Translations under genes and position numbers: made by a program
Assembly (NCBI RefSeq): GCF_044647545.1
Contig: NZ_CP172818.1
Source of the DNA: Escherichia coli
GTDB taxonomy: Bacteria > Pseudomonadota > Gammaproteobacteria > Enterobacterales > Enterobacteriaceae
Length of the DNA: 64,000 bases
Direction: 5' to 3' (one strand)
Shown here: positions 318 to 46,940 of the stretch, in pieces
Layout of the letters: each line of letters begins with the position of its first letter
Position numbering within the stretch: position 1 is the first letter of the stretch
Notes under the pieces: generated by a model
Told to the model about the DNA's origin: nothing
The model's database searches: none
The model's input: only the letters and a program-made list of their open reading frames with translations

Positions 318-865
318 TGGGTTTACCGCCGCTTAGCAAAATTCCTTTCATTTTACGTCCGCAGGCGTGGCTGCATCGTCGCCATTACGGCGAGGTGCTA
401 AGCCCCATTCGCTGGTGGGGGCGGATCCCGTTTATCTTTTATCTGGTGTCGATGTTTGTCGGCTGGCTGGAGCGCAAACGCTCACCGCTCGATCCGGTAG
501 TGCGATCGCTTGTCAGCGCGCGCATTGCGCAAATGTGCCTGTGTGAGTTTTGCGTGGATATCACCAGTATGAAAGTCGCCGAGCGTACCGGCAGCACCGA
601 TAAACTGCTGGCAGTGGCTGACTGGCGGCAAAGCCCGCTCTTTAGCGATGAAGAACGGCTGGCGCTGGAGTACGCCGAAGCCGCAAGCGTCACACCGCCA
701 ACGGTCGATGATGCCCTGCGTACCCGACTGGCTACCCATTTTGACGCTCAGGCACTCACCGAACTGACGGCATTGATCGGCCTGCAAAATCTGTCAGCCC
801 GTTTTAATTCTGCCATGGACATTCCCGCTCAGGGGCTGTGCCGTATTCCTGACAAACGTTCTTAA
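317..865 (+). CDS. ynjA: AhpD-like / carboxymuconolactone decarboxylase family protein
   Basis: 182 aa ORF; CxxC-containing motif QMCLCEFC; ATG overlaps upstream stop (TGATG); synteny. Confidence 0.85.
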   Translation: MGLPPLSKIPFILRPQAWLHRRHYGEVLSPIRWWGRIPFIFYLVSMFVGWLERKRSPLDPVVRSLVSARIAQMCLCEFCVDITSMKVAERTGSTDKLLAVADWRQSPLFSDEERLALEYAEAASVTPPTVDDALRTRLATHFDAQALTELTALIGLQNLSARFNSAMDIPAQGLCRIPDKRS

Positions 866-874
866 GGAGAGATG

Positions 875-2041
875 ATGCGCCATTGTGTATGGTTGCTGGG
901 ATTGTTATCGCTGTTTTCTTTGGCAACACATGCCAGTGACTGGCAGGAAATTAAAAATGAGGCCAAAGGGCAAACCGTCTGGTTTAACGCCTGGGGCGGC
1001 GATACCGCAATTAACCGCTATCTCGACTGGGTTAGCGGCGAGATGAAAACCCATTACGCTATAAACCTGAAGATTGTTCGTCTCGCGGATGCCGCAGACG
1101 CGGTGAAGCGCATTCAGACCGAAGCTGCTGCCGGACGCAAAACAGGCGGTTCGGTGGATCTGCTCTGGGTGAACGGCGAAAACTTCCGCACCTTAAAAGA
1201 GGCCAATTTATTACAAACGGGCTGGGCGGAGACTCTGCCCAACTGGCGCTATGTCGACACACAGCTTCCGGTGCGGGAAGATTTTTCAGTGCCTACAGAA
1301 GGGGCTGAATCGCCCTGGGGCGGCGCACAACTGACGTTTATCGCCCGCCGCGATGTTACGCCACAGCCACCACAAACGCCGCAAGCCTTACTGGAGTTTG
1401 CTAAAGCCAATCCCGGCACGGTTACCTATCCGCGCCCACCGGACTTTACTGGCACCGCATTTCTTGAACAGTTACTGATTATGCTGACGCCAGATCCCGC
1501 AGCATTAAAAGAAGCACCGGACGATGCGACTTTCGCCCGTGTCACTACGCCCTTGTGGCAATATCTTGATGCACTGCATCCGTATTTGTGGCGCGAAGGA
1601 AAAGATTTCCCGCCTTCACCCGCGCGGATGGATGCGCTGCTGAAAGCTAACACATTGCGCCTGTCGCTGACCTTTAACCCTGCACATGCGCAGCAAAAAA
1701 TCGCCAGCGGCGATTTGCCTGCAAGCAGTTACAGTTTTGGTTTTCGCGAGGGGATGATTGGCAACGTCCATTTCGTCACCATTCCTGCCAACGCGAATGC
1801 CAGTGCTGCGGCGAAGGTAGTTGCCAATTTCTTGCTCTCACCCGATGCGCAACTGCGTAAAGCAGATCCCGCTGTCTGGGGCGATCCTTCTGTTCTCGAT
1901 CCGCAAAAACTGCCTGACGGGCAGCGCGAATCCTTGCAATCAAGAATGCCGCAAGATCTGCCGCCGGTACTGGCTGAACCGCACGCAGGTTGGGTAAATG
2001 CGCTGGAACAAGAATGGCTACACCGTTACGGTACGCATTAA
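875..2041 (+). CDS. ynjB: ABC transporter periplasmic substrate-binding protein
   Basis: 388 aa from second ATG; N-terminal signal peptide; SD aaggagag at 864-871; synteny. Confidence 0.85.
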   Translation: MRHCVWLLGLLSLFSLATHASDWQEIKNEAKGQTVWFNAWGGDTAINRYLDWVSGEMKTHYAINLKIVRLADAADAVKRIQTEAAAGRKTGGSVDLLWVNGENFRTLKEANLLQTGWAETLPNWRYVDTQLPVREDFSVPTEGAESPWGGAQLTFIARRDVTPQPPQTPQALLEFAKANPGTVTYPRPPDFTGTAFLEQLLIMLTPDPAALKEAPDDATFARVTTPLWQYLDALHPYLWREGKDFPPSPARMDALLKANTLRLSLTFNPAHAQQKIASGDLPASSYSFGFREGMIGNVHFVTIPANANASAAAKVVANFLLSPDAQLRKADPAVWGDPSVLDPQKLPDGQRESLQSRMPQDLPPVLAEPHAGWVNALEQEWLHRYGTH

Positions 2042-3549
2042 TCTTTTTGCTGTGGGCGATGGTGGCGGTGATTTATGCACCGCTGATCCCGGCAACTCTC
2101 ACGCTGATATCGCCTGCTTTATCGTTGACACACTGGCAGGCGTTATTTGCCGATCCACAGTTACCGCAGGCATTACTGGCAACGCTGGTGTCGACAACCA
2201 TCGCGGCGGTCGGGGCGTTGTTGATTGCCTTGCTGGTGATTGTGGCGCTGTGGCCTGGGCCGAAATGGCAGCGTATGTGCGCCCGTCTGCCGTGGCTGCT
2301 CGCCATTCCCCATGTGGCTTTTGCCTCCAGCGCCCTTCTGCTCTTTGCTGACGGAGGGCTGCTTTATGACTATTTCCCGTATTTCACTCCGCCAATGGAC
2401 AAATTGGGTATTGGGCTGGGCCTCACCCTGGCGGTGAAAGAAAGCGCATTTCTGCTGTGGATCTTAGCGGCAGTATTGAGCGAAAAACGGCTGTTGCAGC
2501 AAGTTATTGTGCTGGATTCACTGGGCTACAGCCGCTGGCAATGTTTGAAGTGGCTGCTTTTGCCCTCTGTCGCGCCTGCGCTGGCAATGGCGATGCTGGC
2601 GATTGTAGCCTGGTCGCTGTCGGTCGTGGATGTGGCGATTACCCTTGGGCCAGGTAATCCCCCGACGCTGGCAGTAATTAGCTGGCAGTGGTTAACTCAG
2701 GGCGACGCCGATCAACAAACGAAAGGCGCACTCGCCAGCCTGCTGCTGATGCTGTTACTCGCCGCCTACGTTTTGCTGGGCTATCTGCTATGGCGTAGCT
2801 GGCGGCGTACTATTCCCCGCGTAGATGGCGTTCGTAAGCCTGCCACGCCTTTATTGCCAGGCATTACGCTGGCGAGTTTTTTACCCTTAACCGGTGTGCT
2901 GTGTGTGGTTCTGCTGGCGATCCTCGCGGATCAGTCGACGATCAATAGTGAAGCGCTCATCAACAGCCTGACAATGGGGCTGGTGGCGACATTCATCGCT
3001 TTGCTCCTGTTACTGCTGTGGCTGGAATGGGGGCCACAGCGTCGCCAGTTGTGGCTATGGTTGCCCATTTTATTACCCGCTCTGCCACTGGTGGCGGGCC
3101 AGTACACGCTGGCGCTATGGCTGAACCTGGATGGAAGCTGGACGGCGGTGGTCTGGGGGCATCTGCTGTGGGTAATGCCGTGGATGCTGTTTATCCTGCA
3201 ACCCGCCTGGCAGCGCATTGATTCACGGTTAATTTTGATTGCGCAAACACTGGGCTGGTCGCGGGCCAAAATCTTCTTTTACGTAAAATGCCCACTCATG
3301 TTGCGCCCTGCGCTGATTGCCTTCGCGGTGGGATTTTCAGTCAGTATTGCGCAGTATATGCCGACGCTGTGGCTGGGCGCGGGGCGTTTTCCGACGCTCA
3401 CCACTGAAGCGGTGGCATTAAGCAGCGGCGGCAGCAACGGTATTCTCGCCGCCCAGGCTTTATGGCAACTGCTGTTACCGCTTATTATTTTTGCCCTGAC
3501 CGCGTTAGTCGCAAAATGGGTAGGTTATGTCAGACAAGGACTCCGCTAA
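2014..3549 (+). CDS. ynjC: ABC transporter permease (two fused transmembrane domains)
   Basis: 511 aa from ATG at 2014; highly hydrophobic, multi-TM; synteny. Confidence 0.85.
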   Translation: MATPLRYALIFLLWAMVAVIYAPLIPATLTLISPALSLTHWQALFADPQLPQALLATLVSTTIAAVGALLIALLVIVALWPGPKWQRMCARLPWLLAIPHVAFASSALLLFADGGLLYDYFPYFTPPMDKLGIGLGLTLAVKESAFLLWILAAVLSEKRLLQQVIVLDSLGYSRWQCLKWLLLPSVAPALAMAMLAIVAWSLSVVDVAITLGPGNPPTLAVISWQWLTQGDADQQTKGALASLLLMLLLAAYVLLGYLLWRSWRRTIPRVDGVRKPATPLLPGITLASFLPLTGVLCVVLLAILADQSTINSEALINSLTMGLVATFIALLLLLLWLEWGPQRRQLWLWLPILLPALPLVAGQYTLALWLNLDGSWTAVVWGHLLWVMPWMLFILQPAWQRIDSRLILIAQTLGWSRAKIFFYVKCPLMLRPALIAFAVGFSVSIAQYMPTLWLGAGRFPTLTTEAVALSSGGSNGILAAQALWQLLLPLIIFALTALVAKWVGYVRQGLR

Positions 3550-4202
3550 TGCTCTGCGTGAAAAATGTTTCGCTACGTTTACCAGAAAGCCGCTTGCTGA
3601 CAAACGTTAACTTTACGGTGGATAAAGGTGACATTGTCACGTTAATGGGGCCGTCTGGCTGTGGAAAATCTACACTGTTTTCATGGATGATTGGTGCGCT
3701 GGCCGGACAGTTTTCTTGTACAGGTGAGCTATGGCTCAATGAGCAACGGATTGACATGCTACCCACCGCAGAGCGTCAGATTGGCATTCTTTTCCAGGAT
3801 GCACTGTTATTTGACCAGTTCAGCGTCGGGCAAAATTTACTGCTGGCTCTGCCAGCGGCACTCAAAGGTGTTGCAAGGCGCGATGCGGTAAATGATGCGC
3901 TGGAGCGTGCGGGGCTTGGCGGTATGTTCCATCAGGATCCTGCCACTTTGTCTGGCGGTCAGCGAGCGCGCGTTGCTCTGCTGCGCGCCCTTCTCGCTCA
4001 GCCAAAAGCGTTGCTACTGGATGAGCCATTCAGCCGTCTTGATGTGGCTCTGCGCGATAATTTTCGCCAGTGGGTGTTCAGCGAAGTTCACGCCCTGGCG
4101 ATCCCCGTCGTTCAGGTAACGCACGATCTCCAGGATGTTCCTGCTGATAGTTCTGTTCTGGATATGGCGCAGTGGTCAGAAAATTACAACAAACTGCGAT
4201 AA
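3549..4202 (+). CDS. ynjD: ABC transporter ATP-binding protein
   Basis: Walker A GPSGCGKST and ABC signature LSGGQRARV; TAATG stop/start overlap with ynjC. Confidence 0.9.
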   Translation: MLCVKNVSLRLPESRLLTNVNFTVDKGDIVTLMGPSGCGKSTLFSWMIGALAGQFSCTGELWLNEQRIDMLPTAERQIGILFQDALLFDQFSVGQNLLLALPAALKGVARRDAVNDALERAGLGGMFHQDPATLSGGQRARVALLRALLAQPKALLLDEPFSRLDVALRDNFRQWVFSEVHALAIPVVQVTHDLQDVPADSSVLDMAQWSENYNKLR

Positions 4203-4268
4203 CGCAAAGTTTTTCTCAATGCGTCAGTTCAGAATGGCGCACTCAAAACTACAATGTCGGGATTTTCG

Positions 4269-5576
4269 ATGAAACGTGTTTCTCAAATGACCGCGCTGGC
4301 AATGGCTTTAGGGCTGGCTTGCGCTTCTTCGTGGGCCGCTGAACTGGCGAAGCCTCTTACACTTGACCAGCTTCAACAACAAAATGGCAAAGCGATAGAT
4401 ACTCGCCCCAGCGCGTTTTATAACGGCTGGCCACAAACCTTAAATGGCCCTTCTGGTCATGAACCTGCCGCCTTAAACCTCTCTGCCAGCTGGCTCGACA
4501 AAATGAGCACCGAACAGCTCAACGCGTGGATCAAGCAACATAACCTGAAAGCCGATGCTCCGGTGGCGCTGTACGGTAATGACAAAGATGTCGACGCCGT
4601 CAAAACGCGACTGCAAAAAGCAGGTTTTACGCATATCTCCATTCTGAGTGACGCGCTAAGCGAACCTTCCCGTCTGCAAAAACTGCCGCATTTTGAGCAG
4701 CTGGTTTATCCGCAATGGCTGCACGACCTGCAACAAGGTAAAGAGGTTACGGCGAAACCTGCCGGTGACTGGAAAGTCATTGAAGCGGCCTGGGGCGCTC
4801 CTAAGCTTTACCTTATCAGCCATATTCCCGGCGCTGACTACATCGATACCAACGAAGTGGAAAGCGAACCGCTGTGGAACAAAGTTTCTGATGAACAACT
4901 GAAAGCGATGCTGGCAAAACACGGCATTCGCCATGACACCACGGTCATTCTGTACGGGCGTGACGTATACGCTGCAGCGCGTGTGGCACAAATTATGCTC
5001 TACGCTGGCGTGAAAGATGTCCGCCTGCTGGACGGCGGCTGGCAAACCTGGTCCGACGCGGGACTGCCCGTTGAGCGCGGAACGCCACCGAAAGTGAAAA
5101 CGGAACCGGATTTCGGCGTGAAGATCCCGGCACAACCGCAACTGATGCTTGATATGGAACAGGCGCGTGGACTGCTGCATCGCCAGGACGCCTCGCTGGT
5201 GAGTATTCGTTCGTGGCCGGAGTTTATCGGTACGACCAGTGGTTACAGCTATATTAAACCAAAAGGTGAAATAGCCGGAGCACGTTGGGGACACGCTGGT
5301 AGCGACTCGACGCATATGGAAGATTTCCATAACCCGGATGGCACCATGCGCAGCGCCGATGATATTACGGCTATGTGGAAAGCATGGAATATCAGACCAG
5401 ATCAGCAAGTTTCATTCTACTGCGGCACCGGCTGGCGCGCGTCCGAAACCTTTATGTACGCACGAGCAATGGGCTGGAATAACGTCTCCGTTTACGACGG
5501 CGGCTGGTACGAATGGAGCAGCGATCCAAAAAATCCGGTAGCAACCGGTGAACGCGGCCCGGACAGCAGCAAATAA
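4269..5576 (+). CDS. ynjE: periplasmic multi-domain rhodanese (thiosulfate sulfurtransferase)
   Basis: Signal peptide; rhodanese active-site loop CGTGWRAS near C-terminus; 435 aa. Confidence 0.9.
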   Translation: MKRVSQMTALAMALGLACASSWAAELAKPLTLDQLQQQNGKAIDTRPSAFYNGWPQTLNGPSGHEPAALNLSASWLDKMSTEQLNAWIKQHNLKADAPVALYGNDKDVDAVKTRLQKAGFTHISILSDALSEPSRLQKLPHFEQLVYPQWLHDLQQGKEVTAKPAGDWKVIEAAWGAPKLYLISHIPGADYIDTNEVESEPLWNKVSDEQLKAMLAKHGIRHDTTVILYGRDVYAAARVAQIMLYAGVKDVRLLDGGWQTWSDAGLPVERGTPPKVKTEPDFGVKIPAQPQLMLDMEQARGLLHRQDASLVSIRSWPEFIGTTSGYSYIKPKGEIAGARWGHAGSDSTHMEDFHNPDGTMRSADDITAMWKAWNIRPDQQVSFYCGTGWRASETFMYARAMGWNNVSVYDGGWYEWSSDPKNPVATGERGPDSSK

Positions 5577-5584
5577 CATTGCAA

Positions 5585-6205
5585 TTACTGACGCTGGAGC
5601 GACTTCAGCGTCAGATACCCACTCCACACCCGCGTAAAGGTCGTCATCCAGCACAACGCACCAAATACCCACGCAAACCACGGAAAACAGGCCGGAAAGA
5701 GGCAACTCAGAACAAACAGCAAAATCGTCTCGCTGCCTTCGGTTAACCCGCCCAGATAATAAAACGATTTATGCGCATAACCAGGATTATCAATCTGATG
5801 TTTCGCCGCCAGCGCAGCAAAAGCGAGAAAACTGCTGCCCGTGCCGATAAACGCAAACAGCAGCCAGCCGCCTGCCAGCGCATTTTGCTCCGGTGCAGCA
5901 AGAATAAAACCAAACGGCACCAGCGCGTAAAAGAGAAAATCGAGAGAAATATCGAGAAAGCCGCCCGCGTCGGTAAGCCCTCTGCGCCGCGCCAGCGCAC
6001 CGTCCAGACCATCAAGCAGCCTGTTCAACAAAATGGCGACTAGCGCCGCCAGATACCAGCCCAGCGCCAGAAAAGGCAGTGCCAGCACGCCGATGGCAAA
6101 TCCCACTAATGTTAAACCATCTGGCGTAATGCCCGGTTTATCAAGAACCCGCACGCACTGATGCAACAACGGTTTAATCCGGGGATGAAGATGGCGGTCT
6201 AGCAC
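5585..6205 (-). CDS. ynjF: CDP-alcohol phosphatidyltransferase family membrane protein
   Basis: Motif DGLDGALARRRG...D...D matching the CDP-alcohol phosphatidyltransferase signature; start taken at second GTG to match the 206 aa K-12 length. Confidence 0.8.
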   Translation of the reverse strand: MLDRHLHPRIKPLLHQCVRVLDKPGITPDGLTLVGFAIGVLALPFLALGWYLAALVAILLNRLLDGLDGALARRRGLTDAGGFLDISLDFLFYALVPFGFILAAPEQNALAGGWLLFAFIGTGSSFLAFAALAAKHQIDNPGYAHKSFYYLGGLTEGSETILLFVLSCLFPACFPWFAWVFGALCWMTTFTRVWSGYLTLKSLQRQ

Positions 6206-6291
6206 AGGCACTCCTTAAATATAAAGCCTTTCTGATTGAGCAACAGTGCGGATATTATGGCATTTTTCGCTTATCTGCCCGTGTGTAATTT

Positions 6292-6699
6292 ATGAAAATG
6301 ATTGAAGTTGTTGCCGCCATCATCGAACGTGATGGCAAAATTTTACTCGCGCAACGCCCTGCCCATAGCGATCAGGCGGGATTATGGGAGTTTGCCGGTG
6401 GTAAAGTCGAGCCGGATGAAAGCCAGCGGCAGGCGCTGGTGCGTGAGTTACGCGAAGAACTGGGCATCGAAGCAGCTGTGAGTGAATATGTTGCCAGCCA
6501 TCAGCGAGAAGTTTCGGGGCGGATTATCCATCTTCATGCCTGGCACGTACCCGACTTCCACGGGACGTTACAGGCACATGAACATCAGGCGCTGGTCTGG
6601 TGCTCACCTGAAGAGGCGCTGCAATATCCGCTGGCCCCTGCTGACATTCCACTATTAGAGGCGTTTATGGCTTTACGCGCCGCCAGACCAGCGGATTAG
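6292..6699 (+). CDS. nudG: Nudix CTP / 5-methyl-dCTP pyrophosphohydrolase
   Basis: 135 aa; Nudix box GGKVEPDESQRQALVRELREELGI. Confidence 0.9.
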   Translation: MKMIEVVAAIIERDGKILLAQRPAHSDQAGLWEFAGGKVEPDESQRQALVRELREELGIEAAVSEYVASHQREVSGRIIHLHAWHVPDFHGTLQAHEHQALVWCSPEEALQYPLAPADIPLLEAFMALRAARPAD

Positions 6700-6937
6700 T
6701 GCTAAGGGTTTTGTCATCACGCTGGCATTGCAGCAGTATTCCTTCGGCTTTAATTACCGCCCCTTCAGAATAATTTTGATCCTGATAAACGCAGCACTGA
6801 GTACAGGGCTGCGCTGACTGCCCGCCTGAACTGAACACTTCTGGCGGTACGTTTACCTCCACGTCCGGATGATAATGCGGGTTAGCCAGTGCAATTAATG
6901 GAAATGCTAATACTACGGCGAACAATGCTCGACTCAC
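6665..6937 (-). CDS. ynjH: DUF1496 secreted small protein
   Basis: 90 aa with signal peptide; convergent overlap with nudG; synteny. Confidence 0.8.
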   Translation of the reverse strand: MSRALFAVVLAFPLIALANPHYHPDVEVNVPPEVFSSGGQSAQPCTQCCVYQDQNYSEGAVIKAEGILLQCQRDDKTLSTNPLVWRRVKP

Positions 6938-7172
6938 AGGGAACTCCTTAACGTTATTGTCTCTGCTACTAATAACGGTAGCCGGGCGGCATAACTTTAG
7001 CGTCTGAGTTATCGCATTTGGTTATGAGATTACTCTCGTTATTAATTTGCTTTCCTGGGTCATTTTTTTCTTGCTTACCGTCACATTCTTGATGGTATAG
7101 TCGAAAACTGCAAAAGCACATGACATAAACAACATAAGCACAATCGTATTAATATATAAGGGTTTTATATCT

Positions 7173-8516
7173 ATGGATCAGACATATTCTCTGGAGTCAT
7201 TCCTCAACCATGTCCAAAAGCGCGACCCGAATCAAACCGAGTTCGCGCAAGCCGTTCGTGAAGTAATGACCACACTCTGGCCTTTTCTTGAACAAAATCC
7301 AAAATATCGCCAGATGTCATTACTGGAGCGTCTGGTTGAACCGGAGCGCGTGATCCAGTTTCGCGTGGTATGGGTTGATGATCGCAACCAGGTACAGGTC
7401 AACCGTGCATGGCGTGTGCAGTTCAGCTCTGCCATCGGCCCGTACAAAGGCGGTATGCGCTTCCATCCGTCAGTTAACCTTTCCATTCTCAAATTCCTCG
7501 GCTTCGAACAAACCTTCAAAAATGCCCTGACTACTCTGCCGATGGGCGGTGGTAAAGGCGGCAGCGATTTCGATCCGAAAGGAAAAAGCGAAGGTGAAGT
7601 GATGCGTTTTTGCCAGGCGCTGATGACTGAACTGTATCGCCACCTGGGCGCGGATACCGACGTTCCGGCAGGTGATATCGGCGTTGGTGGTCGTGAAGTC
7701 GGCTTTATGGCGGGGATGATGAAAAAGCTCTCCAACAATACCGCCTGCGTCTTCACCGGTAAGGGCCTTTCATTTGGCGGCAGTCTTATTCGCCCGGAAG
7801 CTACCGGCTACGGTCTGGTTTATTTCACAGAAGCAATGCTAAAACGCCACGGTATGGGTTTTGAAGGAATGCGCGTTTCCGTTTCTGGCTCCGGCAACGT
7901 CGCCCAATACGCTATCGAAAAAGCGATGGAATTTGGTGCTCGTGTGATCACTGCGTCAGACTCCAGTGGCACTGTAGTTGATGAAAGCGGATTCACGAAA
8001 GAGAAACTGGCACGTCTTATCGAAATCAAAGCCAGCCGCGATGGTCGAGTGGCAGATTACGCCAAAGAATTTGGTCTGGTCTATCTCGAAGGCCAACAGC
8101 CGTGGTCTGTACCGGTTGATATCGCCCTGCCTTGCGCCACCCAGAACGAACTGGATGTTGACGCCGCGCATCAGCTTATCGCCAATGGCGTTAAAGCCGT
8201 CGCCGAAGGAGCAAATATGCCGACCACCATCGAAGCGACTGAACTGTTCCAGCAGGCAGGCGTACTGTTTGCACCGGGTAAAGCGGCTAATGCTGGCGGT
8301 GTAGCAACATCGGGCCTGGAAATGGCGCAAAACGCTGCGCGCCTGGGCTGGAAAGCCGAGAAAGTTGACGCACGTTTGCATCACATCATGCTGGATATCC
8401 ACCATGCCTGTGTTGAGCATGGTGGTGAAGGTGATCAAACCAACTACGTGCAGGGCGCGAACATTGCCGGTTTTGTGAAGGTTGCGGATGCGATGTTAAG
8501 CCAGGGCGTGATTTAA
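7173..8516 (+). CDS. gdhA: NADP-specific glutamate dehydrogenase
   Basis: 447 aa; Glu/Leu/Phe/Val dehydrogenase active-site region GGGKGGSDFDPKGKS. Confidence 0.97.
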   Translation: MDQTYSLESFLNHVQKRDPNQTEFAQAVREVMTTLWPFLEQNPKYRQMSLLERLVEPERVIQFRVVWVDDRNQVQVNRAWRVQFSSAIGPYKGGMRFHPSVNLSILKFLGFEQTFKNALTTLPMGGGKGGSDFDPKGKSEGEVMRFCQALMTELYRHLGADTDVPAGDIGVGGREVGFMAGMMKKLSNNTACVFTGKGLSFGGSLIRPEATGYGLVYFTEAMLKRHGMGFEGMRVSVSGSGNVAQYAIEKAMEFGARVITASDSSGTVVDESGFTKEKLARLIEIKASRDGRVADYAKEFGLVYLEGQQPWSVPVDIALPCATQNELDVDAAHQLIANGVKAVAEGANMPTTIEATELFQQAGVLFAPGKAANAGGVATSGLEMAQNAARLGWKAEKVDARLHHIMLDIHHACVEHGGEGDQTNYVQGANIAGFVKVADAMLSQGVI

Positions 8517-8570
8517 GTGCCGGATACAGCGCAAACGCCTACTTCAGTATCAGATGGTTGAAAAGAACCT

Positions 8571-10547
8571 TTATATTATCACTCCATTAAGAAGAAAATC
8601 GCCCCGCCCCCGACCTCTTCTGATGGCGGGCTTTTTTTCGGCGCTCTCTTGCGTGGCGAATCCTTTTTCTTCCCCTTCTCCACCGCCGGGAGCCATTATT
8701 CCCCGAAACTGCCTTACCGACGTGCGCTTTGCCTGATCAATCAACTGGTACAATGTCCCCACCAGCGGCTGCATAAAGTCCTGGTAGCGACACTGCTTTT
8801 CGCTGATTTGCGTCAGCACCGATTCCCAGTGCGCGGTCATGTCCGGTCGCGTCGCCATTTCTGGCAGCGAATGGAATAGCGCTTTTCCGGCGTCGGTGGA
8901 GTGGATATAGCGCCCTTTTTTGGTCAGGAAACCACGCTTGAACAACAGTTCAATAATCCCGGCACGGGTTGCTTCTGTCCCCAGACCATCGGTCGCACGA
9001 AGGATCTTTTTCAGATCTTTGTCCTGCACAAAGCGTGCGATCCCGGTCATCGCCGAAAGCAGTGTTGCATCGGTAAAATGGCGCGGCGGCTGGGTTTGCC
9101 GCTCTACCACTTCACCTTTTTCGCACAACAATTCATCGCCTTTCGCCACCACAGGCAGCGGCATGCCGTCGTTTTCTTCATCGCGCTCTTTGCTGCCTAA
9201 CAGCGTGCGCCAGCCTGCTTCAGCAAGAAAACGGGCTTTAGCGACAAATTTGCCTTTGGCAATGTCCAGTTCGATAACACACTTGCGGAACACCGCATCC
9301 GGGCAGAACTGCATCAAGTACTGACGGGCAATCAGGTTATAGACCTTCGCTTCGTTCTCCGTCAGGTTGATCGCAGAACTCCGTGCGGTCGGAATGATGG
9401 CGTGGTGCGCATCGACCTTTTTGTCATCCCAACAGCGGTTGCGTATATCTGGATCTACCACTGGCTGCGGCAACAGATCCGGTGCATGAACGCTGATAGC
9501 ATTCATCACCGCGTGGCGTCCGGCAAAATGTTCTTCTGGCAAATAGCGGCAATCGGAACGCGGATAAGTGATTAGCTTGTGCGTTTCGTACAGCTTCTGG
9601 CAGATATCAAGCACGTTCTGCGCGCTCAGACCAAAACGTTTAGCCGCTTCAATCTGCAACGCCGAAAGCGAAAAAGGAAGCGGCGCGGATTCTGATTCCC
9701 GTTTATCGTTATAGCTGGTGACAATAGCTGGTTGACCACTAATGCGGTTAACCACATGCTCCGCCAGTGGACGATGTAACAAGCGCCCTTCTTCATCCTG
9801 GTACGGTTCACACGCTTCGCTCGGTTGCCAGATAGCGGTAAACCGCTCATCGGCAGGTGTCACGATATGTGCTTTGACTTCAAAGAAATCTTTCGCCACG
9901 AAGTTTTCAATCTCTTCGTCGCGGCGCACCACCAGTCCGAGTACGGGCGTCTGCACGCGTCCCACGGAAAGTACGCCCTGATAACCGGCATTGCGACCGA
10001 GAATGGTGTAAGCGCGGGTCATATTGATGCCGTACAGCCAGTCAGCTCGGGCTCGCGCCAGTGCAGAAACGCACAGCGGTACAAACTCGCTATTGGAGCG
10101 AAGACGATCGATCGCCCGCTCAACCGCCTGCGGGTTCAGGTCGTTTATCAAACAACGCTGTACCTGCTGGCGCTTTTCCGGTGCCAGTTGCAGGTAGTCC
10201 AGCACTTCATCCACCAGCAGTTGCCCTTCGCGATCCGGGTCTCCGGCGTGAACGATTTCGCTGGCTTCATGCAGGAAGCGTTTGATGACATTAAGTTGTT
10301 TAGTCACGGAGGGTCGGGGCTGTAATTGCCACTTTTCCGGGACAATTGGCAAATCCGCAAGATTCCAGCGCGCATAGCGGCTGTCGTAGGCGTCTGGCTG
10401 CGCCTGCTCAAGCAGGTGACCGATACACCAGGTCACCACCTGACCATTACCGCACTCGATAAAGCCATCGCCTTTCCGGTGCGGTTTAGGCAGGACATCA
10501 GCAATGGCGCGCGCCAGACTCGGTTTTTCGGCAATAAACAACCGCAT
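8571..10547 (-). CDS. topB: DNA topoisomerase III
   Basis: Starts [16 protein letters not shown] (Toprim); about 658 aa versus the recalled 653 aa K-12 length; the C-terminal 21 codons are encoded by a GC hairpin plus T-run sequence. Confidence 0.9.
8600..8639 (+). terminator. candidate gdhA terminator lying inside the topB 3' coding end
   Basis: GC-rich cccgcc...ggcggg pairing followed by T7 on the plus strand, 85 nt after gdhA stop. Confidence 0.4.
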
Positions 10548-10551
10548 TGAA

Positions 10552-11595
10552 TTAACGGATCTCAACCATGGCACGACCGCCGCGCGCTGGCACCAGTTCG
10601 CCAATCGCCGTCAGTTCAATGCCAAACTCGGCGGCTGTAGCTTTGACCTCATTTTCTGCTTCCGGCATGACCGCCAGCAGCAAACCGCCAGAAGTTTGCG
10701 GATCGCACAGCAGATCGCGCACTTCACGCGGCATTTCACCCATCAGATGACCGTAGCTGGCAAAGTTACGTTCGGTGCCGCCAGGCACTGCGCCCAACTT
10801 AATGTACTCTTCAACCCCAGGCAATTTCGGGATCGCGTCATAGTCGACGCGCGCCTGCACACCTGCGCCCTGACACATTTCGCTTAAATGCCCCAGCAAA
10901 CCAAAACCCGTAACGTCTGTCATCGCTTTTACGCCTTCGATGTTGGCAAAGGACGCGCCTGCGATGTTCATCCGGCACATCACTTCCGTCGCCAATCCCT
11001 GATGTTCTGGTTTAAGCAGTGATTTTTTCTCAGCCGTGGTAAGAACGCCAATCCCCAGCGGTTTCGTCAGGAACAGTTTGCATCCGGCTTGTGCGGTACT
11101 GTTTTTCTTCACCCGCTCGGTCGGTACGATCCCCGTTACCGCCAGACCAAAAATCGGCTCCGGCGCATCGATGGAGTGACCGCCAGCCAGCGCAATACCC
11201 GCCTGACGGCATGCATAGCGTCCACCTTCGGTCACTTCGCGGGCAATTTCCGGGGAAAGTTTGTTAATCGGCCAGCCGAGGATCGCAATCGCCATAATCG
11301 GTTTGCCGCCCATTGCGAAGATATCGCTGATGGCGTTAGTCGCCGCAATGCGGCCAAAATCGAAAGGATTATCAACGATCGGCATAAAGAAGTCGGTGGT
11401 ACTGATAACGCTGGTGCCATTGCCCAGATCGTACACCGCCGCATCGTCGCGGGTTTCATTACCCACAAGCAAATTCGGATCAACAAACTTCGCCTGCTCA
11501 CTGTGCAGGATGGTTTCCAACACTTTTGGGGAAATTTTACAGCCGCAACCAGCGCCGTGGCTGTATTGGGTCAAACGAATCGAGTTCTCGCTCAT
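10552..11595 (-). CDS. selD: selenide, water dikinase (selenophosphate synthetase)
   Basis: N-terminus [23 protein letters not shown]; 347 aa; 4 nt gap to topB start. Confidence 0.95.
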
Positions 11596-11711
11596 GGACA
11601 TCTCCTGTCAATGCAATCCGGGTATGGTAACCCTCATTCCATGAAGTGATAAGTGAGAGTGTCTGAATTCCTGCGCCTTTGCTCACAATCCAGACAGTTT
11701 CGCGACAATTA

Positions 11712-12263
11712 TCAGAAATAAGTCACAAACGGCGTCGGGTCCGGGACGTTTATCGACGTAGATGCTTTCAACTGCGGCGTACCGAGGTAGAGAAAACCGA
11801 CAATTTTATCCTGCTCACGGCAACCGAATGCTTCACGCACTACCGGACTTTCAGTTAATGCACCACTGCGCCAGATGCCGCCAAACCCCTGGGCAACTGC
11901 TGCCATTTGCATCGCCATGACCGCGCATCCCGCAGACATTTCCTGTTCCCAGCGCGGGACTTTATGATTTTCTTCGCATTTCGCCACCACCGTTATGATG
12001 AGCGGTGCGCGGAACGGCGCATTACGCGCTTTGTCGATGGCTTTGTTATCACTACCGGCAGCAATCGCCCCCTGCTCCAGTACAGCGCTGAAACGCTCGC
12101 GCCCTTCCCCTTCAATTACAAAGAAATGCCACGGTTGCATGGACTTATGGTCCGGCGCACGCATACCCGCACGCAGGATGTTTTGCAGTTGTTCACCCGT
12201 TGGCGCGGGTTCAGCCAGGCGGGAGGCGCTACGGCGATTGATCAATAGTTCGAGTGCATCCAT
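11712..12263 (-). CDS. ydjA: NAD(P)H nitroreductase
   Basis: 183 aa from [13 protein letters not shown]; nitroreductase fold family. Confidence 0.9.
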
Positions 12264-12423
12264 TTGATTAACTCCTGTCATGATATTTATTCACAAAATT
12301 AACACGAGAGTGGATTTTGTTACAGCCCAGTCCGCAATTCCTGCTGACAAGTGCCGGTTGGGTCATTACGATAACCACATCTATTGCGCCTGAGACAGGT
12401 GTGACCTTAAGTTGGGAGAATAC

Positions 12424-14280
12424 ATGCGAACCCTTTGGCGATTTATTGCCGGATTTTTTAAATGGACGTGGCGTCTGCTGAATTTCGTCCGTGAAATGGT
12501 ACTTAACCTGTTCTTTATTTTTCTCGTGCTGGTTGGTGTGGGGATCTGGATGCAGGTCAGTGGTGGTGATTCGAAAGAAACGGCCAGTCGTGGCGCACTG
12601 CTGCTGGACATTTCTGGTGTGATCGTCGATAAACCCGACAGTTCTCAGCGGTTTAGTAAATTAAGCCGCCAGCTGCTTGGTGCCAGTTCCGATCGTCTGC
12701 AGGAAAACTCACTGTTTGATATCGTCAACACCATTCGCCAGGCGAAGGACGACCGCAATATCACCGGTATTGTGATGGATCTGAAAAACTTCGCAGGCGG
12801 CGACCAGCCGTCTATGCAGTACATCGGCAAAGCTCTGAAAGAGTTTCGTGACAGCGGGAAACCGGTTTATGCCGTTGGCGAGAACTACAGCCAGGGGCAA
12901 TATTATCTCGCCAGTTTCGCCAATAAAATTTGGCTGTCACCGCAAGGCGTGGTGGATCTGCACGGCTTTGCCACCAACGGTCTGTACTACAAATCGTTGC
13001 TGGATAAGCTGAAAGTTTCCACCCATGTGTTCCGCGTGGGTACGTATAAATCTGCCGTTGAACCGTTTATTCGTGATGATATGTCGCCGGCAGCCCGCGA
13101 AGCTGACAGCCGCTGGATTGGTGAGCTGTGGCAAAACTATCTGAATACTGTTGCCGCTAACCGGCAGATCCCTGCTCAGCAGGTATTCCCTGGCGCGCAA
13201 GGGTTGCTTGAGGGTTTAACCAAAACCGGTGGCGATACCGCGAAATATGCGCTGGAAAACAAGCTGGTCGATGCACTGGCATCGAGTGCCGAAATCGAAA
13301 AAACTCTGACCAAAGAGTTCGGCTGGAGCAAGACTGATAAAAATTATCGCGCCATCAGTTATTACGATTACGCATTGAAAACGCCGGCAGATACCGGTGA
13401 CAGCATCGGAGTCGTCTTCGCTAATGGCGCAATTATGGATGGCGAGGAAACTCAGGGGAATGTTGGCGGTGATACCACTGCGGCACAAATCCGCGACGCT
13501 CGCCTTGACCCGAAAGTGAAAGCGATTGTCCTGCGTGTTAATAGCCCAGGCGGCAGCGTTACCGCGTCTGAAGTGATTCGCGCTGAACTGGCAGCAGCCC
13601 GGGCAGCGGGTAAGCCTGTGGTTGTATCGATGGGCGGCATGGCGGCATCTGGTGGTTACTGGATTTCCACGCCAGCTAATTACATTGTGGCTAACCCCAG
13701 CACCCTGACCGGTTCTATCGGTATCTTCGGCGTGATCACCACCGTAGAAAATAGTCTGGATTCGATTGGTGTTCATACTGATGGTGTCTCAACTTCACCG
13801 CTGGCGGATGTTTCTATCACCAGGGCACTGCCGCCGGAAGCGCAGCAGATGATGCAGTTAAGCATTGAGAATGGCTATAAACGCTTTATCACGCTGGTTG
13901 CTGATGCGCGTCATTCAACGCCGGAGCAGATTGATAAAATCGCCCAGGGCCACGTCTGGACCGGTCAGGATGCAAAAGCTAACGGGCTGGTCGATAGTCT
14001 CGGGGATTTCGATGATGCGGTCGCCAAAGCCGCAGAGCTGGCAAAAGTGAAACAGTGGCATCTGGAATACTACGTTGATGAACCGACCTTCTTCGACAAA
14101 GTGATGGACAACATGTCTGGTTCTGTCCGGGCAATGTTGCCAGATGCGTTCCAGGCCATGTTACCTGCACCGCTGGCCTCGGTAGCCTCTACCGTTAAAA
14201 GTGAAAGCGACAAGCTGGCCGCGTTTAACGACCCACAAAACCGTTATGCGTTTTGCCTGACCTGCGCCAACGTGCGTTAA
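12424..14280 (+). CDS. sppA: protease IV (signal peptide peptidase A)
   Basis: 618 aa; N-terminal TM segment then tandem ClpP/crotonase-like peptidase S49 domains. Confidence 0.95.
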
Positions 14281-14292
14281 GTCATGTACTAA

Positions 14293-14325
14293 GTGGCCGA
14301 CAGATCGTCGGCCACATTACTTTTT
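14293..14325 (+). terminator. rho-independent terminator of sppA
   Basis: gtggccgac-agatc-gtcggccac followed by attacttttt. Confidence 0.8.
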
Positions 14326-14446
14326 ACGTCGACGAATCCTCTTCCCGCTGTCTCGCCCCATATTTCCTTATCCGCATAGTATCAGGTGCGCTCCCCCTGC
14401 CTCACGTATATACTTTTGCTCTTTCGATATCATTCATATCAATATC

Positions 14447-15463
14447 ATGCAAAAGAAATCAATTTACGTCGCCTACACGGGCGGGACCATCGGGATGCAG
14501 CGTTCCGAGCAGGGTTATATTCCGGTGTCAGGTCATCTACAGCGCCAACTGGCGCTGATGCCGGAATTCCATCGCCCGGAGATGCCAGATTTCACCATTC
14601 ATGAATATACGCCATTGATGGATTCTTCTGATATGACGCCAGAAGACTGGCAGCATATTGCTGAAGATATTAAAGCGCATTATGACGACTATGATGGTTT
14701 TGTCATTCTGCACGGCACCGACACGATGGCGTATACCGCCTCTGCACTGTCGTTCATGCTCGAGAATCTCGGTAAACCGGTTATTGTGACAGGGTCACAA
14801 ATCCCGCTAGCTGAGTTACGCTCTGACGGACAAATTAATCTGCTGAATGCGTTGTACGTTGCGGCGAATTATCCTATCAACGAAGTAACTCTCTTTTTTA
14901 ATAATCGACTTTATCGTGGCAACCGTACCACCAAAGCCCATGCCGATGGTTTTGATGCGTTTGCCTCTCCAAACCTTCCTCCGTTACTGGAAGCAGGTAT
15001 CCATATTCGTCGTTTGAATACGCCACCCGCCCCGCACGGTGAAGGGGAATTGATCGTTCATCCAATCACCCCACAACCGATTGGCGTAGTGACGATTTAT
15101 CCAGGGATTTCTGCTGACGTCGTGCGCAATTTTCTGCGCCAACCGGTGAAAGCATTGATTCTGCGCTCATATGGCGTGGGTAATGCGCCACAAAACAAAG
15201 CCTTCCTGCAAGAATTACAAGAAGCCAGCGATCGCGGTATTGTGGTAGTCAACCTGACACAATGTATGTCCGGTAAAGTGAATATGGGTGGTTATGCCAC
15301 CGGTAACGCCCTCGCCCATGCCGGCGTTATTGGCGGTGCAGATATGACTGTAGAAGCCACACTAACCAAACTGCATTACCTGCTTAGCCAGGAACTGGAT
15401 ACTGAAACCATTCGCAAGGCCATGAGCCAAAACCTGCGCGGCGAACTGACGCCGGATGATTAA
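14447..15463 (+). CDS. ansA: cytoplasmic L-asparaginase I
   Basis: 338 aa; asparaginase N-terminal motif YTGGTIGM. Confidence 0.95.
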   Translation: MQKKSIYVAYTGGTIGMQRSEQGYIPVSGHLQRQLALMPEFHRPEMPDFTIHEYTPLMDSSDMTPEDWQHIAEDIKAHYDDYDGFVILHGTDTMAYTASALSFMLENLGKPVIVTGSQIPLAELRSDGQINLLNALYVAANYPINEVTLFFNNRLYRGNRTTKAHADGFDAFASPNLPPLLEAGIHIRRLNTPPAPHGEGELIVHPITPQPIGVVTIYPGISADVVRNFLRQPVKALILRSYGVGNAPQNKAFLQELQEASDRGIVVVNLTQCMSGKVNMGGYATGNALAHAGVIGGADMTVEATLTKLHYLLSQELDTETIRKAMSQNLRGELTPDD

Positions 15464-15473
15464 GGAGACTGCA

Positions 15474-16115
15474 ATGCCCCCTCGCGCCCTGTTACTGGTC
15501 GATTTACAAAATGATTTCTGTGCTGGTGGCGCGCTCGCCGTGCCGGAAGGTGACAGTACGGTGGATGTCGCTAACCGCCTGATTGACTGGTGCCAGTCGC
15601 GCGGTGAAGCGGTTATCGCCAGTCAGGACTGGCACCCGGCGAATCACGGCAGTTTTGCCAGTCAGCACGGTGTAGAGCCTTATACGCCAGGCCAACTCGA
15701 CGGTTTGCCACAAACCTTCTGGCCAGATCACTGTGTGCAGAACAGTGAAGGCGCACAATTACATCCGTTACTGAACCAAAAAGCGATCGCAGCGGTGTTC
15801 CATAAAGGCGAAAATCCTTTAGTTGACAGTTACAGTGCCTTTTTTGATAACGGCCGTCGGCAGAAAACTGCGCTCGATGACTGGTTGCGCGCTCATGTAA
15901 TCAATGAATTGATCGTTATGGGTCTGGCTACTGACTATTGCGTGAAGTTTACCGTGCTGGACGCGTTACAGTTAGGCTATAAGGTGAACGTGATTACCGA
16001 TGGTTGTCGTGGCGTAAATATCCAGCCACAGGACAGTGCGCACGCGTTTATGGAAATGTCAGCCGCTGGGGCAACGCTATATACGCTGGCAGACTGGGAA
16101 GAAACGCAGGAGTAA
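15474..16115 (+). CDS. pncA: nicotinamidase / pyrazinamidase
   Basis: 213 aa; isochorismatase-like; SD aaggag 6 nt upstream of ATG; 10 nt after ansA stop. Confidence 0.95.
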   Translation: MPPRALLLVDLQNDFCAGGALAVPEGDSTVDVANRLIDWCQSRGEAVIASQDWHPANHGSFASQHGVEPYTPGQLDGLPQTFWPDHCVQNSEGAQLHPLLNQKAIAAVFHKGENPLVDSYSAFFDNGRRQKTALDDWLRAHVINELIVMGLATDYCVKFTVLDALQLGYKVNVITDGCRGVNIQPQDSAHAFMEMSAAGATLYTLADWEETQE

Positions 16116-16122
16116 TTTTACG

Positions 16123-16157
16123 CTGGCCTACAATTCTGTACTGGCATTGTAGGCCAG
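16123..16157. terminator. 12-bp perfect inverted repeat between convergent pncA and ydjE (bidirectional terminator / REP-like hairpin)
   Basis: ctggcctacaat-N11-attgtaggccag read directly. Confidence 0.6.
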
Positions 16158-16207
16158 ATAAAACACATCAGTGATACATCTGGTAATTGACGCCATCAAC
16201 GAAAGAT

Positions 16208-17566
16208 TTAATTCACCTCAGAAATCTCTTCCAGCGACACCTTCCGCGTTTCGATGCCAAAAATGGAGAGAACCAGCGCACAGAGCACTAACATGACACC
16301 AAGCACCATAAACACCGTGATCGACCCATAATGTGTTAATAATGCCGCAACGCCATAGGGCGTGAAGACTGCGACGATCCGTCCGACGGCATTAACGAAA
16401 CCCGAACCGCGCAAGCGTAAATGCGTTGGCCAAAGTTCCGGGATATAAACCGCCGACGCGAAGCACACATACATGTATAAAAAGAAGATCATCACCAGGC
16501 CATAGATTAAAATCGCCCACTCTGTAGTCTGAATTGAATAGATATAGCCTAACACAGCAATAATAATAAGTAAGGCAGAGCCAAATAATCGACGAGGAAA
16601 ATGATCAATAATTAATGCCGCAATAAATATCCCTACCGGAGCGCCAATCATAATAACAGCGGTCATTAATATTGATTTATCAACATCAATGCCGGAGTTA
16701 ACAAATATGGTCGGTATCCATACGGTGATGGTATAAAGCGAAATGTTCATTGCAATTAAAACAGTAATCGCGACTAATGTACGTCGTAACATTTCCCCTT
16801 TAAACAGGAGCCAGAAGGTACCCTTGATTACCTTAACCTTGCTGTTGCTCTGGTTCAAAGTAAGCGGGGGTAAACGAACACTCTTCTCTCTTTCAATTTG
16901 CTGCTCTACTTCACGAAGTTGGCTTTCTGCACCTGCGATTTGTCCTTTCCCCGCCAACCATCGAGGCGACTCAATAAAGTATTTACCTGAGAGAAACCAG
17001 GCTAACAGTATGCCAATACCACCCAGCAGAAACATTATCCGCCAACTAAAAAAAGCGATAACCACCACGCCTATCGCCGCAGACAACATGGGCGACCAGT
17101 TACCGACAAATGAGAGCCGCGCGGACCATTTTCCACGCACCGTCGCGGGGATAAACTCCGTAAATGAGGCATAGCCAACCATAATCAGCGCCCCCATTCC
17201 TGTTCCCATCAGGAAGCGAAAGAAGATGAGCCAGTACATATCAGGGACAAAAGCGGCCCCTGTTGCCGCAATACCGACGATGAGAAGATTTATGCGAAAC
17301 GCCCTGCGCCGCCCAAAGTAGTCACCAATAAACCCACCGGTAAGAGAGCCGATGAAATAACCAAACATTAATGCCGAGGTAAAGGCGGCATTGAGAAAAT
17401 TATTTGACCATCCATTGCTTACCAGCTTTGCTAAAACAACATTGCCTGAATAACTCAAAAAACCCGTTAATAACAGACTAAAGCTTATAATACCAAATAT
17501 ACGATAATGAAACCGGGCCAAAGGCAAGCGGTCCAGTCTTGCGCCAATTTGATCATATTGTTCCAT
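16208..17566 (-). CDS. ydjE: MFS sugar(-acid) transporter
   Basis: 452 aa, 12-TM MFS; paralog of ydjK. Confidence 0.9.
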   Translation of the reverse strand: MEQYDQIGARLDRLPLARFHYRIFGIISFSLLLTGFLSYSGNVVLAKLVSNGWSNNFLNAAFTSALMFGYFIGSLTGGFIGDYFGRRRAFRINLLIVGIAATGAAFVPDMYWLIFFRFLMGTGMGALIMVGYASFTEFIPATVRGKWSARLSFVGNWSPMLSAAIGVVVIAFFSWRIMFLLGGIGILLAWFLSGKYFIESPRWLAGKGQIAGAESQLREVEQQIEREKSVRLPPLTLNQSNSKVKVIKGTFWLLFKGEMLRRTLVAITVLIAMNISLYTITVWIPTIFVNSGIDVDKSILMTAVIMIGAPVGIFIAALIIDHFPRRLFGSALLIIIAVLGYIYSIQTTEWAILIYGLVMIFFLYMYVCFASAVYIPELWPTHLRLRGSGFVNAVGRIVAVFTPYGVAALLTHYGSITVFMVLGVMLVLCALVLSIFGIETRKVSLEEISEVN

Positions 17567-17682
17567 TAGGTGCCTCGGATTTGCTAAAAAGGTAGCAATT
17601 GCGGCAAATTCACTTGCCGCATCTTTATCATCATTTTATTTCCAGGCGCAGGAACAAATAATATTGACAACGTGTGCTTAAA

Positions 17683-18441
17683 TTACCACACCAGCTGGAT
17701 ATTATTGTCTTTGCAAAATGCTATCCACTCTGCACCCGGTGATTTATCAGTTATTATGTAATTAATATGACTAAAGTCAGCTAACTGGACAAAAGCTTTG
17801 CGATCAAACTTAGAGTGATCAACCAATAACGCAACTTCTGTCGCCTGACGGATCATTGTCTTTTTGATTTCAGCTTCCGCTTCGTTAGAGTCCAGCGCGC
17901 CGCTGTTAATATCAAGACCTTTACAACTCATTACCATGATATCGACATGGTAGCGGCTGATGATCTCTTTAGTAATTCTTCCTTGCAGGGAAAGTGTATT
18001 TTTGTTTAGTTCCCCACCCGTTGAAACGACTTTAATTTCTGACTGAGCCAGAACATGAATCGCTTCCGCCGAGTTGGTTAGCAACGTCAGGTCACTACGG
18101 TCCTGTAACAATTTGAGCAATTCCATTACGGTACTACTGGAATCGGCTGCCATGGTGGTTTTATTGTCGATAAAGGGTAATGCCTTGCGTGCAATAAGCT
18201 GCTTCTCTTCATAAAACGATGAAGCGCGCTTATAAAAATGGATATTCTCCGTCAACATCGCTGTATTTAAAACAGCACCACCATAGGTTCTGGTCAAAAA
18301 GCCTTCATCTTCCAGCTTCTCAAGATCGCGGCGAATGGTTTCTTCGGTTACCTGAAAAATCCCACTCAAATTTGAGACTGTCACCTTTTTATCGTTGGCA
18401 ACCATTTGCTTAATTGCCTGAATCCTGTCTTTTGCCGCCAC
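17683..18441 (-). CDS. ydjF: DeoR-family transcriptional regulator
   Basis: 252 aa; N-terminal HTH plus DeoR C-terminal sugar-binding domain. Confidence 0.9.
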   Translation of the reverse strand: MAAKDRIQAIKQMVANDKKVTVSNLSGIFQVTEETIRRDLEKLEDEGFLTRTYGGAVLNTAMLTENIHFYKRASSFYEEKQLIARKALPFIDNKTTMAADSSSTVMELLKLLQDRSDLTLLTNSAEAIHVLAQSEIKVVSTGGELNKNTLSLQGRITKEIISRYHVDIMVMSCKGLDINSGALDSNEAEAEIKKTMIRQATEVALLVDHSKFDRKAFVQLADFSHINYIITDKSPGAEWIAFCKDNNIQLVW

Positions 18442-18577
18442 GATTACACCCCTGTATCTTTTTACATCACATTAGCGCGATTATCGCATAATTGATGTTT
18501 ACTTTCAAAATAACCTGTTTGAATCACAGATTTTCATCACAGTTTTCACAGAAACAGAGGTGAATCGTGTTGAGTAT

Positions 18578-19558
18578 TTAACGCTCCAGGGCCTCTGCCA
18601 TTTCCCTCATCAATGTTGCGTCTGCATCCGATAAGTTGATATTCAATGCCGCGACATTTTCGCGTACCTGTTCCGGTGCAGTAGCCCCACTAAGAATGGA
18701 GATTAAATCACTCTGTTTTAATATCCACGCCAGTGCCAGAGTGGGAATTGTGCACTGATAACGAGCACAGAGTGGCTGCCACTGTTCAAGCATATCAATC
18801 ACTTTCAGCATGTTTTCACGCTGGAACCAGACTTTATTTGCCCGAGCGCCGCCCGGAACGTAATCACGAGTGATGGTACCGGTCAACAATCCCTGCTCTA
18901 GCGGGGAATAAACCTGTACCACAATGCCATTATCACGACATAGCGGCAGCAGTTCGCTTTCCATTGCCCGGTCGAGGATACTGTATTTCGCCTGAATAAT
19001 ATCCAGTTCACCATATTGTAGATACTCGCGGATATGGTCAGCATCGACGTTAGCAGCGCCTATAGCGCGAATTTTCCCTTCGGCCTTTAACTCATTGAGC
19101 ACTGCGACAGTTTCAGCGATCGGCGTAAAAAATGGCGGCACCGACTGCCAGTGCGTCATGTAGATATCGATGTAATCAATACCCAGACGTTGCAAGCTGG
19201 CTTCTACCTCTTCGCGGATAGATTCAGGGGAAAGGTTTTTATACAACTGCCGATCGCCAACTTTGTTGAATAAACTCCCTTTTCGTTCCCAGACAATGCC
19301 GCATTTGGTTTCTACTACAACCTGTTCACGGGGCAGTTTTTTTAACGCCTGACCGACGATAACTTCACTATTGCCAAAGTTATATCCTGGCGCAGTATCA
19401 ATCAGATTAATGCCACAACGATGGGCTTCAAGAATCGTATCAATACATATTTGCCGATCGAGATCGCCATTCCATGCAGGACCGCCGCCAATGGCCCATG
19501 TCCCCAACCCCATTCGCGAAAGCGTAATATCCGTTGTGCCTAAAGGTATCTTTTTCAT
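18578..19558 (-). CDS. ydjG: NADH-dependent aldo-keto reductase
   Basis: 326 aa AKR family. Confidence 0.9.
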   Translation of the reverse strand: MKKIPLGTTDITLSRMGLGTWAIGGGPAWNGDLDRQICIDTILEAHRCGINLIDTAPGYNFGNSEVIVGQALKKLPREQVVVETKCGIVWERKGSLFNKVGDRQLYKNLSPESIREEVEASLQRLGIDYIDIYMTHWQSVPPFFTPIAETVAVLNELKAEGKIRAIGAANVDADHIREYLQYGELDIIQAKYSILDRAMESELLPLCRDNGIVVQVYSPLEQGLLTGTITRDYVPGGARANKVWFQRENMLKVIDMLEQWQPLCARYQCTIPTLALAWILKQSDLISILSGATAPEQVRENVAALNINLSDADATLMREMAEALER

Positions 19559-19567
19559 TTGCCTTCA

Positions 19568-46628: not shown

Positions 46629-46940
46629 ATTCGTTCTTTTCAGTAAATAACCTGCGTCATTTCACCTTTTATTGTTTCCGTTTCGTGTTTTATGGCTTTC
46701 CGTATTCTTAATTGTTTAATTTATGTAACATGCAAATAATCAATTTGTTAAACACAACATACAACTCATTACCCTGCAAATAATTACAACTGGCAAAAGC
46801 CAGAGACGGGTTTTTATGCCCAGGAGATGACTCATATAGCAATGTTAAAAAAAAAGATGGCTAAAAATTTTTTTTTTAACTTTTCCCCAAAAAAACCCAA
46901 AAATTTTGTTACGCGTACGTTAGGTTCCGCCGTACAGGTA

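Follow-up and report, generated by a model that had tools for sequence, protein, structure and literature searches.

The aberrant 3' end of topB, the gene for DNA topoisomerase III, in this Escherichia coli record is very probably a consensus or assembly artefact in which two haplotypes were blended, an explanation that we infer from sequence comparison. The chromosome is of the common ynjI-less type, a haplotype whose convergent gdhA and topB are separated by about 76 nt. Over the window (the whole stretch of 64,000 nucleotides that was analysed) it matches ECONIH1 at 100%, save for two scrambled patches; outside these patches, no differences were found in 8.5 kb, 38 kb and 17 kb. Patch 1 (8517-8672) covers the gdhA-topB spacer and the 3' end of topB, and patch 2 lies at the 5' end of yeaV. 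The features concerned are the following.

7173-8516, plus strand: gdhA, NADP-specific glutamate dehydrogenase, intact (open reading frame; 100% identical to FDAARGOS_497 and ECONIH1, where it is annotated as such)
8517-8570, no strand: gdhA-topB intergenic spacer, 54 nt here versus 76 nt in all close relatives
8517-8540, plus strand: incomplete REP palindrome, of which the left arm and loop remain and the right arm TATCCGGCC is missing (fold, alignment)
8561-8564, plus strand: run of four A versus three in relatives, a +1 homopolymer change (alignment)
8571-10547, minus strand: topB, DNA topoisomerase III, 658 codons and stop (open reading frame, TIGR01056 and PDB matches)
8589-8613, plus strand: 25 nt, AAGAAGAAAATCGCCCCGCCCCCGA, in place of the GCCCG of relatives, net +20 nt (alignment)
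8589-8672, minus strand: frame-shifted codons 626-653 of topB, in which 28 residues replace the normal 21
8598-8613, plus strand: K-12-type topB tail sequence in the insert, ATCGCCCCGCCCCCGA versus ATCGCCCCGCTTCCGA in K-12, 14/16 identical
8601-8638, plus strand: degraded hairpin and T7 run inside the topB 3' end (folds)
8672-8675, plus strand: run of four C versus three in relatives, a +1 frameshift at topB codon 626 (alignment)
46811-46905, plus strand: patch 2, scrambled yeaV 5' end, start codons destroyed, 100 nt reduced to 44 nt of homopolymer-rich sequence

The gdhA-topB junction

The first-pass annotation had placed the stops of gdhA and topB 54 nt apart and had noted that ynjI is missing relative to the K-12 order gdhA-ynjI-topB. 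Both statements hold. The gdhA stop ends at 8516 and the topB stop codon occupies 8571-8573 on the minus strand, and ynjI is not present between them. In K-12, ynjI (b1762, annotated as a DUF1266 protein) lies between gdhA and a topB of 653 aa; neither the spacing nor the TopB tail of K-12 is that of the window.

Adjacent gdhA and topB with nothing between them were found in 1514 of 5426 complete E. coli genomes, each as a single match spanning both genes; examples are FDAARGOS_497 (NZ_CP033850.1), ECONIH1 (NZ_CP009859.1), ST648 and E2348/69. The window shares this layout, its two genes being convergent and adjacent without an intervening gene. Judged by these genomes, the absence of ynjI is ordinary and marks a common, already annotated E. 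coli haplotype. The ynjI-less genomes have a 76-nt spacer with a complete REP palindrome, and a 651-aa TopB with a lysine/arginine-rich tail.

The conserved 205-nt junction of this haplotype, consisting of the REP and the topB 3' end, is where the window departs from it, matching at only 81.8% because of five indels. This is the best identity reached over 8517-8720, and genomes lacking all five changes attain it as well. Of 1550 genomes, 1478 match the 205 nt of ECONIH1 at 99% identity or more, and the full-length matches among the matches listed all have the same length. Many genomes match the flanks on either side (1-8516 and 8721-20000) at 100.0%.

Patch 1 contains five indel events in 156 nt and zero clean substitutions. 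The first two fall in the spacer, where GACAATT is missing immediately 3' of the gdhA stop and a further 16 nt, the REP right arm, are missing (TATCCGGCCATAAAA and a T, relative to the relatives' spacer); the spacer also holds the one extra A. Only the 25-nt replacement and the extra C fall within topB. None of the five changes is shared by any of the 5426 complete E. coli genomes.

The loss of the arm is reflected in folding. An REP palindrome has both arms (GCCGGATA...TATCCGGC), and the window is without the right one; the reference REP folds at -19.5 kcal/mol (z = -3.55), as against -6.6 kcal/mol (z = +0.66) in the window.

A G+C-rich inverted repeat at about 8601-8631 was also affected. 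Its right arm GGCGGGC (8625-8631) and the T7 run (8632-8638) are intact, and its left arm is disrupted by the 25-nt insert. The last codons of topB had been described as lying over a GC-rich hairpin plus T7 resembling the gdhA terminator. The overlap is there, but in the window the hairpin has no folding advantage over shuffled sequence (z = -0.66) and is not called as a terminator. It is not a product of the junction, since the normal ynjI-less allele contains it in cleaner form: GCCCGCC-N9-GGCGGGC followed by U7, folding at -17.5 kcal/mol (z = -2.96). In that intact allele, the hairpin and U7 are likely the gdhA intrinsic terminator, to judge from the fold. Simple terminator and promoter scans called the hairpin in neither the window nor the intact allele, because its loop or bulge lies outside the rules of the terminator consensus scan. 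A search of 8300-8900 for known RNA families (Rfam) returned none at E up to 1.

These comparisons bear on the idea that a deletion removing ynjI ran into the 3' end of topB and fused it to the gdhA terminator, thereby creating a new tail. The absence of ynjI and the overlap of the tail with the hairpin and T7 would fit such a fusion. It is refuted by the 1514 ynjI-less genomes, which have a normal tail together with the same hairpin and T7. The T7 run represents conserved KK codons and occurs in K-12 too. K-12 and ECONIH1 share no alignable sequence in the stretch that opens immediately past the gdhA stop and closes at roughly the stop of topB; the haplotype boundary spans this stretch, and therefore the ynjI polymorphism leaves the topB frame untouched. 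Two small edits to the normal ynjI-less allele, moreover, fully explain the new tail. The probability left to a fusion is next to nil. Thus, the earlier proposal of an indel junction that reshaped the TopB tail is right in that indels changed the tail, and wrong in tracing the change to the absence of ynjI.

The cargo of the site differs among strains. K-12 carries ynjI, ETEC4067 an IS1397 transposase, and ECE170 Hsp70 and J-domain genes, which lie beside IS1 at a place where gdhA is not adjacent. On this comparison, the gdhA-topB site is an insertion and replacement hotspot flanked by REP elements.

TopB and its altered tail

The TopB of the window has 658 aa, counted from MRLFIAEK (start 10547), compared with 653 aa in K-12 and 651 aa in the ynjI-less allele; the first-pass estimate of about 5 codons beyond 653 was accurate. 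It is a type IA TopB by TIGR01056 (NCBIfam), scoring 1009.9 bits over residues 1-628 against a curated cut-off of 515.75 bits. The Topo III structures PDB 1d6m and 2o19 match residues 1-641, with a collinear catalytic core. The active-site Tyr328 (...LITYPRSD...) is present, and T327, Y328, P329 and R330 are invariant in a five-allele alignment. Residues 1-625 are identical to those of the ECONIH1/FDAARGOS_497 allele. By these alignments, the catalytic core of TopB is untouched.

The change is confined to the C-terminus. The extra C shifts the topB frame at codon 626, the net gain of 20 nt restores it, and the protein still ends in NGVII; when the two topB edits were applied to the reference gene, the protein of the window was reproduced exactly. 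Thus, the tail is aberrant because of the extra C (8672-8675) and the replacement of 5 nt by 25 nt (8589-8613), both unique to this record. In consequence, the tail differs from P14294-type TopB, as had been suspected, and residues 626-653 are read in a frame that no other allele uses there, so that a lysine/arginine-rich C-terminal tail homologous to those of other E. coli alleles is absent. The net charge of the replaced segment is +2 in the window (28 residues) versus +5 in the normal allele (21 residues). For Topo III, a contribution of the basic C-terminal tail to the binding of substrate and single-stranded DNA is reported (Zhang & DiGate 1994, J Biol Chem 269:9052; Zhang et al. 1996, J Biol Chem 271:9039; both as cited in PMC4678816 and PMC3753633).

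Tails were compared at positions 8571-8680 of the window and at three further loci (L002, 3500-3620; L004, 2871-2990; L016, 1794-1900). The final approximately 30 residues of TopB vary naturally while staying basic: ATCC 43896 ends in ...ADEAGGGAIA, the ynjI-less allele in ...SEEAGNGVII and ECE170 in ...KPKTDNTDSAN, and the end of the K-12 tail likewise differs from those of other haplotypes. The tail evolves much faster than the core, which is 96-100% identical. The tails of K-12 and of the ynjI-less allele are collinear, diverged homologues.

The window can be set beside three known forms. With K-12 Topo III (b1763, 653 aa; PDB 1D6M) it shares a core that is about 96% identical, Tyr328 and the position at which the tail begins; K-12 differs in having its own tail sequence and ynjI downstream of topB. 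With the ynjI-less alleles of ECONIH1 and others it shares gene order, flanks, TopB residues 1-625 and the final NGVII, and these differ in their 76-nt spacer, in the presence of the REP right arm and in their 21 in-frame tail residues. Finally, it resembles compensated (double) frameshift alleles, because +1 followed by +20 restores the frame and recodes only the stretch between; unlike them, it gives no sign of stepwise evolution, and its topB edits belong to a cluster of five indels.

The exact 658-aa TopB was found on 1 contig, as against at least 1000 contigs for the normal allele, and it carries no NCBI protein accession. Single-edit intermediates (the extra C only, or the 25-nt replacement only) gave 0 matches in a protein collection of about 15 billion proteins. 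A 27-mer of the insert had 0 hits in GTDB species representatives and 0 in JGI metagenomes, and the insert sequence had 0 hits elsewhere in the 64-kb window. The change is therefore a singleton, absent from all independent records, as expected of an artefact.

Scrambled patches at haplotype breaks

Over the 64 kb, K-12 and ECONIH1 are collinear but for two breaks, at 8518-8617 (the ynjI site) and at 46739-46962, the latter representing 225 nt absent in K-12; their comparison contains one further indel, of 17 nt. Both scrambled patches sit exactly on these two breaks. Patch 1 opens with the base that follows the gdhA stop, and the right edge of patch 2 coincides with that of the K-12 deletion. 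The chance that two patches of approximately 150 nt would hit both breaks was estimated at about 5e-5.

Patch 1 also contains sequence of the other haplotype. The 16-mer ATCGCCCCGCCCCCGA in the insert agrees with its K-12 counterpart in strand and in lying 18 nt from the T7 run (P = 0.0065 against shuffles), and the translation of the window around the insert in the unshifted frame resembles the K-12 tail. No counterpart of ATCGCCCCGCCCCCGA was found in ynjI-less haplotypes. ynjI-positive alleles vary naturally in this motif, ATCC 43896 having ATCGCCCCGCCTCCGG. Because K-12-type tail sequence lies in register within the insert, patch 1 is read as a blend of two haplotypes. The anomalies thus fall on structural differences between haplotypes and carry the sequence of the other haplotype, a combination that points to an artefact.

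Patch 2 lies within the 225-nt segment absent from K-12 and shares the right edge of that segment. Here the yeaV start ATGATGAGC has become ATATAGC, a G inside an A-run has become A, and 100 nt have been replaced by GCTAAAAATTTTTTTTTTAACTTTTCCCCAAAAAAACCCAAAAATTTT. Judged on its letters, patch 2 is homopolymer-rich nonsense and not credible as biology. Approximately 1,400 complete genomes of K-12 type are without the 225 nt, which cover the yeaV start and N-terminal codons. In RefSeq, yeaV is shorter in MG1655 (b1801; 1446 nt versus 1611 nt) and is a pseudogene lacking the N-terminus in KLY; the K-12 yeaV may be a truncated allele.

The same interval is scrambled in BS-04 (NZ_CP172819.1; locus L007, 301-546), an unrelated complete genome and the only other such assembly at the yeaV site among 4368 genomes. 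There CCCACAACAATCGG has become CCCAAAAAAATCGG, and PGAP calls yeaV a pseudogene. BS-04 resembles the window in the interval, the right edge, the direction of collapse into A/T homopolymers and the destruction of the yeaV N-terminus; it differs in being a ynjI-positive strain, and the scrambled strings are similar, not identical. On this likeness, the yeaV scramble appears to be an error of the consensus that recurs at a structural polymorphism. Since BS-04 has ynjI and retains the 225 nt, scrambling at yeaV only is what blending of haplotypes would predict, and its gdhA-ynjI-topB region is normal. As a second case for the gdhA-topB junction, BS-04 was considered and set aside as uninformative, since it has ynjI.

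Two further places in the window deserve mention. At 62073, downstream of sdaA, a 17-nt deletion (CGGATGGGCGAATTTAT) relative to FDAARGOS_497 and K-12 has removed the right arm and T-tail of a hairpin. It is common (100%) to 11 complete genomes including ECONIH1, which makes it a real lineage marker; with the version of the window folding at only -1.9 kcal/mol, it probably disables the sdaA terminator hairpin. In both FDAARGOS_497 and ECONIH1, the MFS transporter gene ydjK (about 22438-23816) bears the annotation of a frameshifted pseudogene; the window, which matches the two exactly over this stretch, has the same frameshift, and ydjK of K-12 is intact.

Hairpins could also have acted as mutagens in vivo, by template switching or slipped mispairing at the REP and terminator palindromes, with one arm deleted and the other copied. 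The missing 16 nt are indeed the REP right arm, the insert abuts the terminator stem, and the deletion at 62073 demonstrates that loss of a hairpin arm occurs naturally. As for the copying step, no significant copy of neighbouring ECONIH1-type sequence, inverted or direct, was found in the insert; an origin by inverted copying or template switching was rejected, the best local match being no better than shuffles (P = 0.24). In addition, 31 other hairpins in the 64 kb with dG of -10 kcal/mol or lower are untouched, and patch 2 is not at a notable hairpin. Hairpin-driven mutagenesis is accordingly very improbable as the source of patch 1. Ascribing all three differences from FDAARGOS_497 to hairpin artefacts was likewise rejected, given the 11 genomes that share the 62073 deletion and the 31 strong hairpins left untouched.

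Origin and meaning of the changes

If two haplotypes were blended, the five indels at 8517-8672 would be consensus errors and not mutations in the organism. Sequence of a second, K-12-like haplotype would have been mixed into the assembled consensus, its source being either another strain, whether co-sequenced, co-cultured or contaminating, or a reference that served to guide or polish the assembly. Along collinear stretches the majority base would win, giving perfect sequence. At spots where the haplotypes differ structurally, such as the ynjI site and the 225-nt indel at the yeaV 5' end, read alignments would break down and the consensus would be scrambled, with segments lost, homopolymers changed in length, and fragments of the other haplotype left in. 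That the topB reading frame remains open is due only to the absence of a stop in the alternative frame and to a net coding change that happens to be 21 nt.

Several findings speak against an artefact. Selection acting on a real allele would likewise bring topB back into frame, as is seen here; with the alternative frame open, however, roughly one in three arbitrary net indels would do so, and the last five TopB residues vary between alleles, so that selection would not be expected to recover them. Between the K-12-like 16-mer and K-12 itself there are two mismatches. The 17-nt deletion of a hairpin arm at 62073 is real, so such deletions do occur naturally, and the yeaV-site scramble is seen in just one other assembly of the 4368.

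The sequence could instead be real, the outcome of homeologous or illegitimate recombination of a ynjI-positive, K-12-type fragment into a ynjI-less recipient that left a messy junction; this we consider unlikely. A +1 slip in the topB G-run, compensated by the net insertion of 20 nt, would then have yielded a viable Topo III. Its lysine-rich tail would have been recoded into an arginine/glycine-rich, RGG-like one (RRGRGRG), with the REP destroyed and the gdhA terminator weakened, an outcome to which we likewise give a low probability. In favour of a real allele, the reading frame is open and returns to the native NGVII end, and the insert carries K-12-type sequence in register; the site is a genuine hotspot with different cargo per strain, and TopB tails do vary naturally among alleles. 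Against this, the allele stands alone among 5426 genomes and about 15 billion proteins and has no intermediates, and it consists of five indels with no clean substitution. Recombination should also have brought K-12-type SNPs into the flanks, which are 100% ECONIH1, and it fails to explain either the homopolymer nonsense of patch 2 or the parallel scramble in BS-04. Blending of two haplotypes in the consensus would cover both patches.

The biological weight of the altered topB end is small: the ynjI-less layout is common and already annotated, and the core of the enzyme is untouched. The case does call for caution, because a plausible reshaped tail at an indel junction can stem from consensus errors. 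Such errors concentrate where co-sequenced or reference haplotypes differ structurally, and they can leave the open reading frame open and so escape frameshift filters. Should the allele be real after all, it would provide a modest natural experiment on tail sequence versus charge in Topo III.
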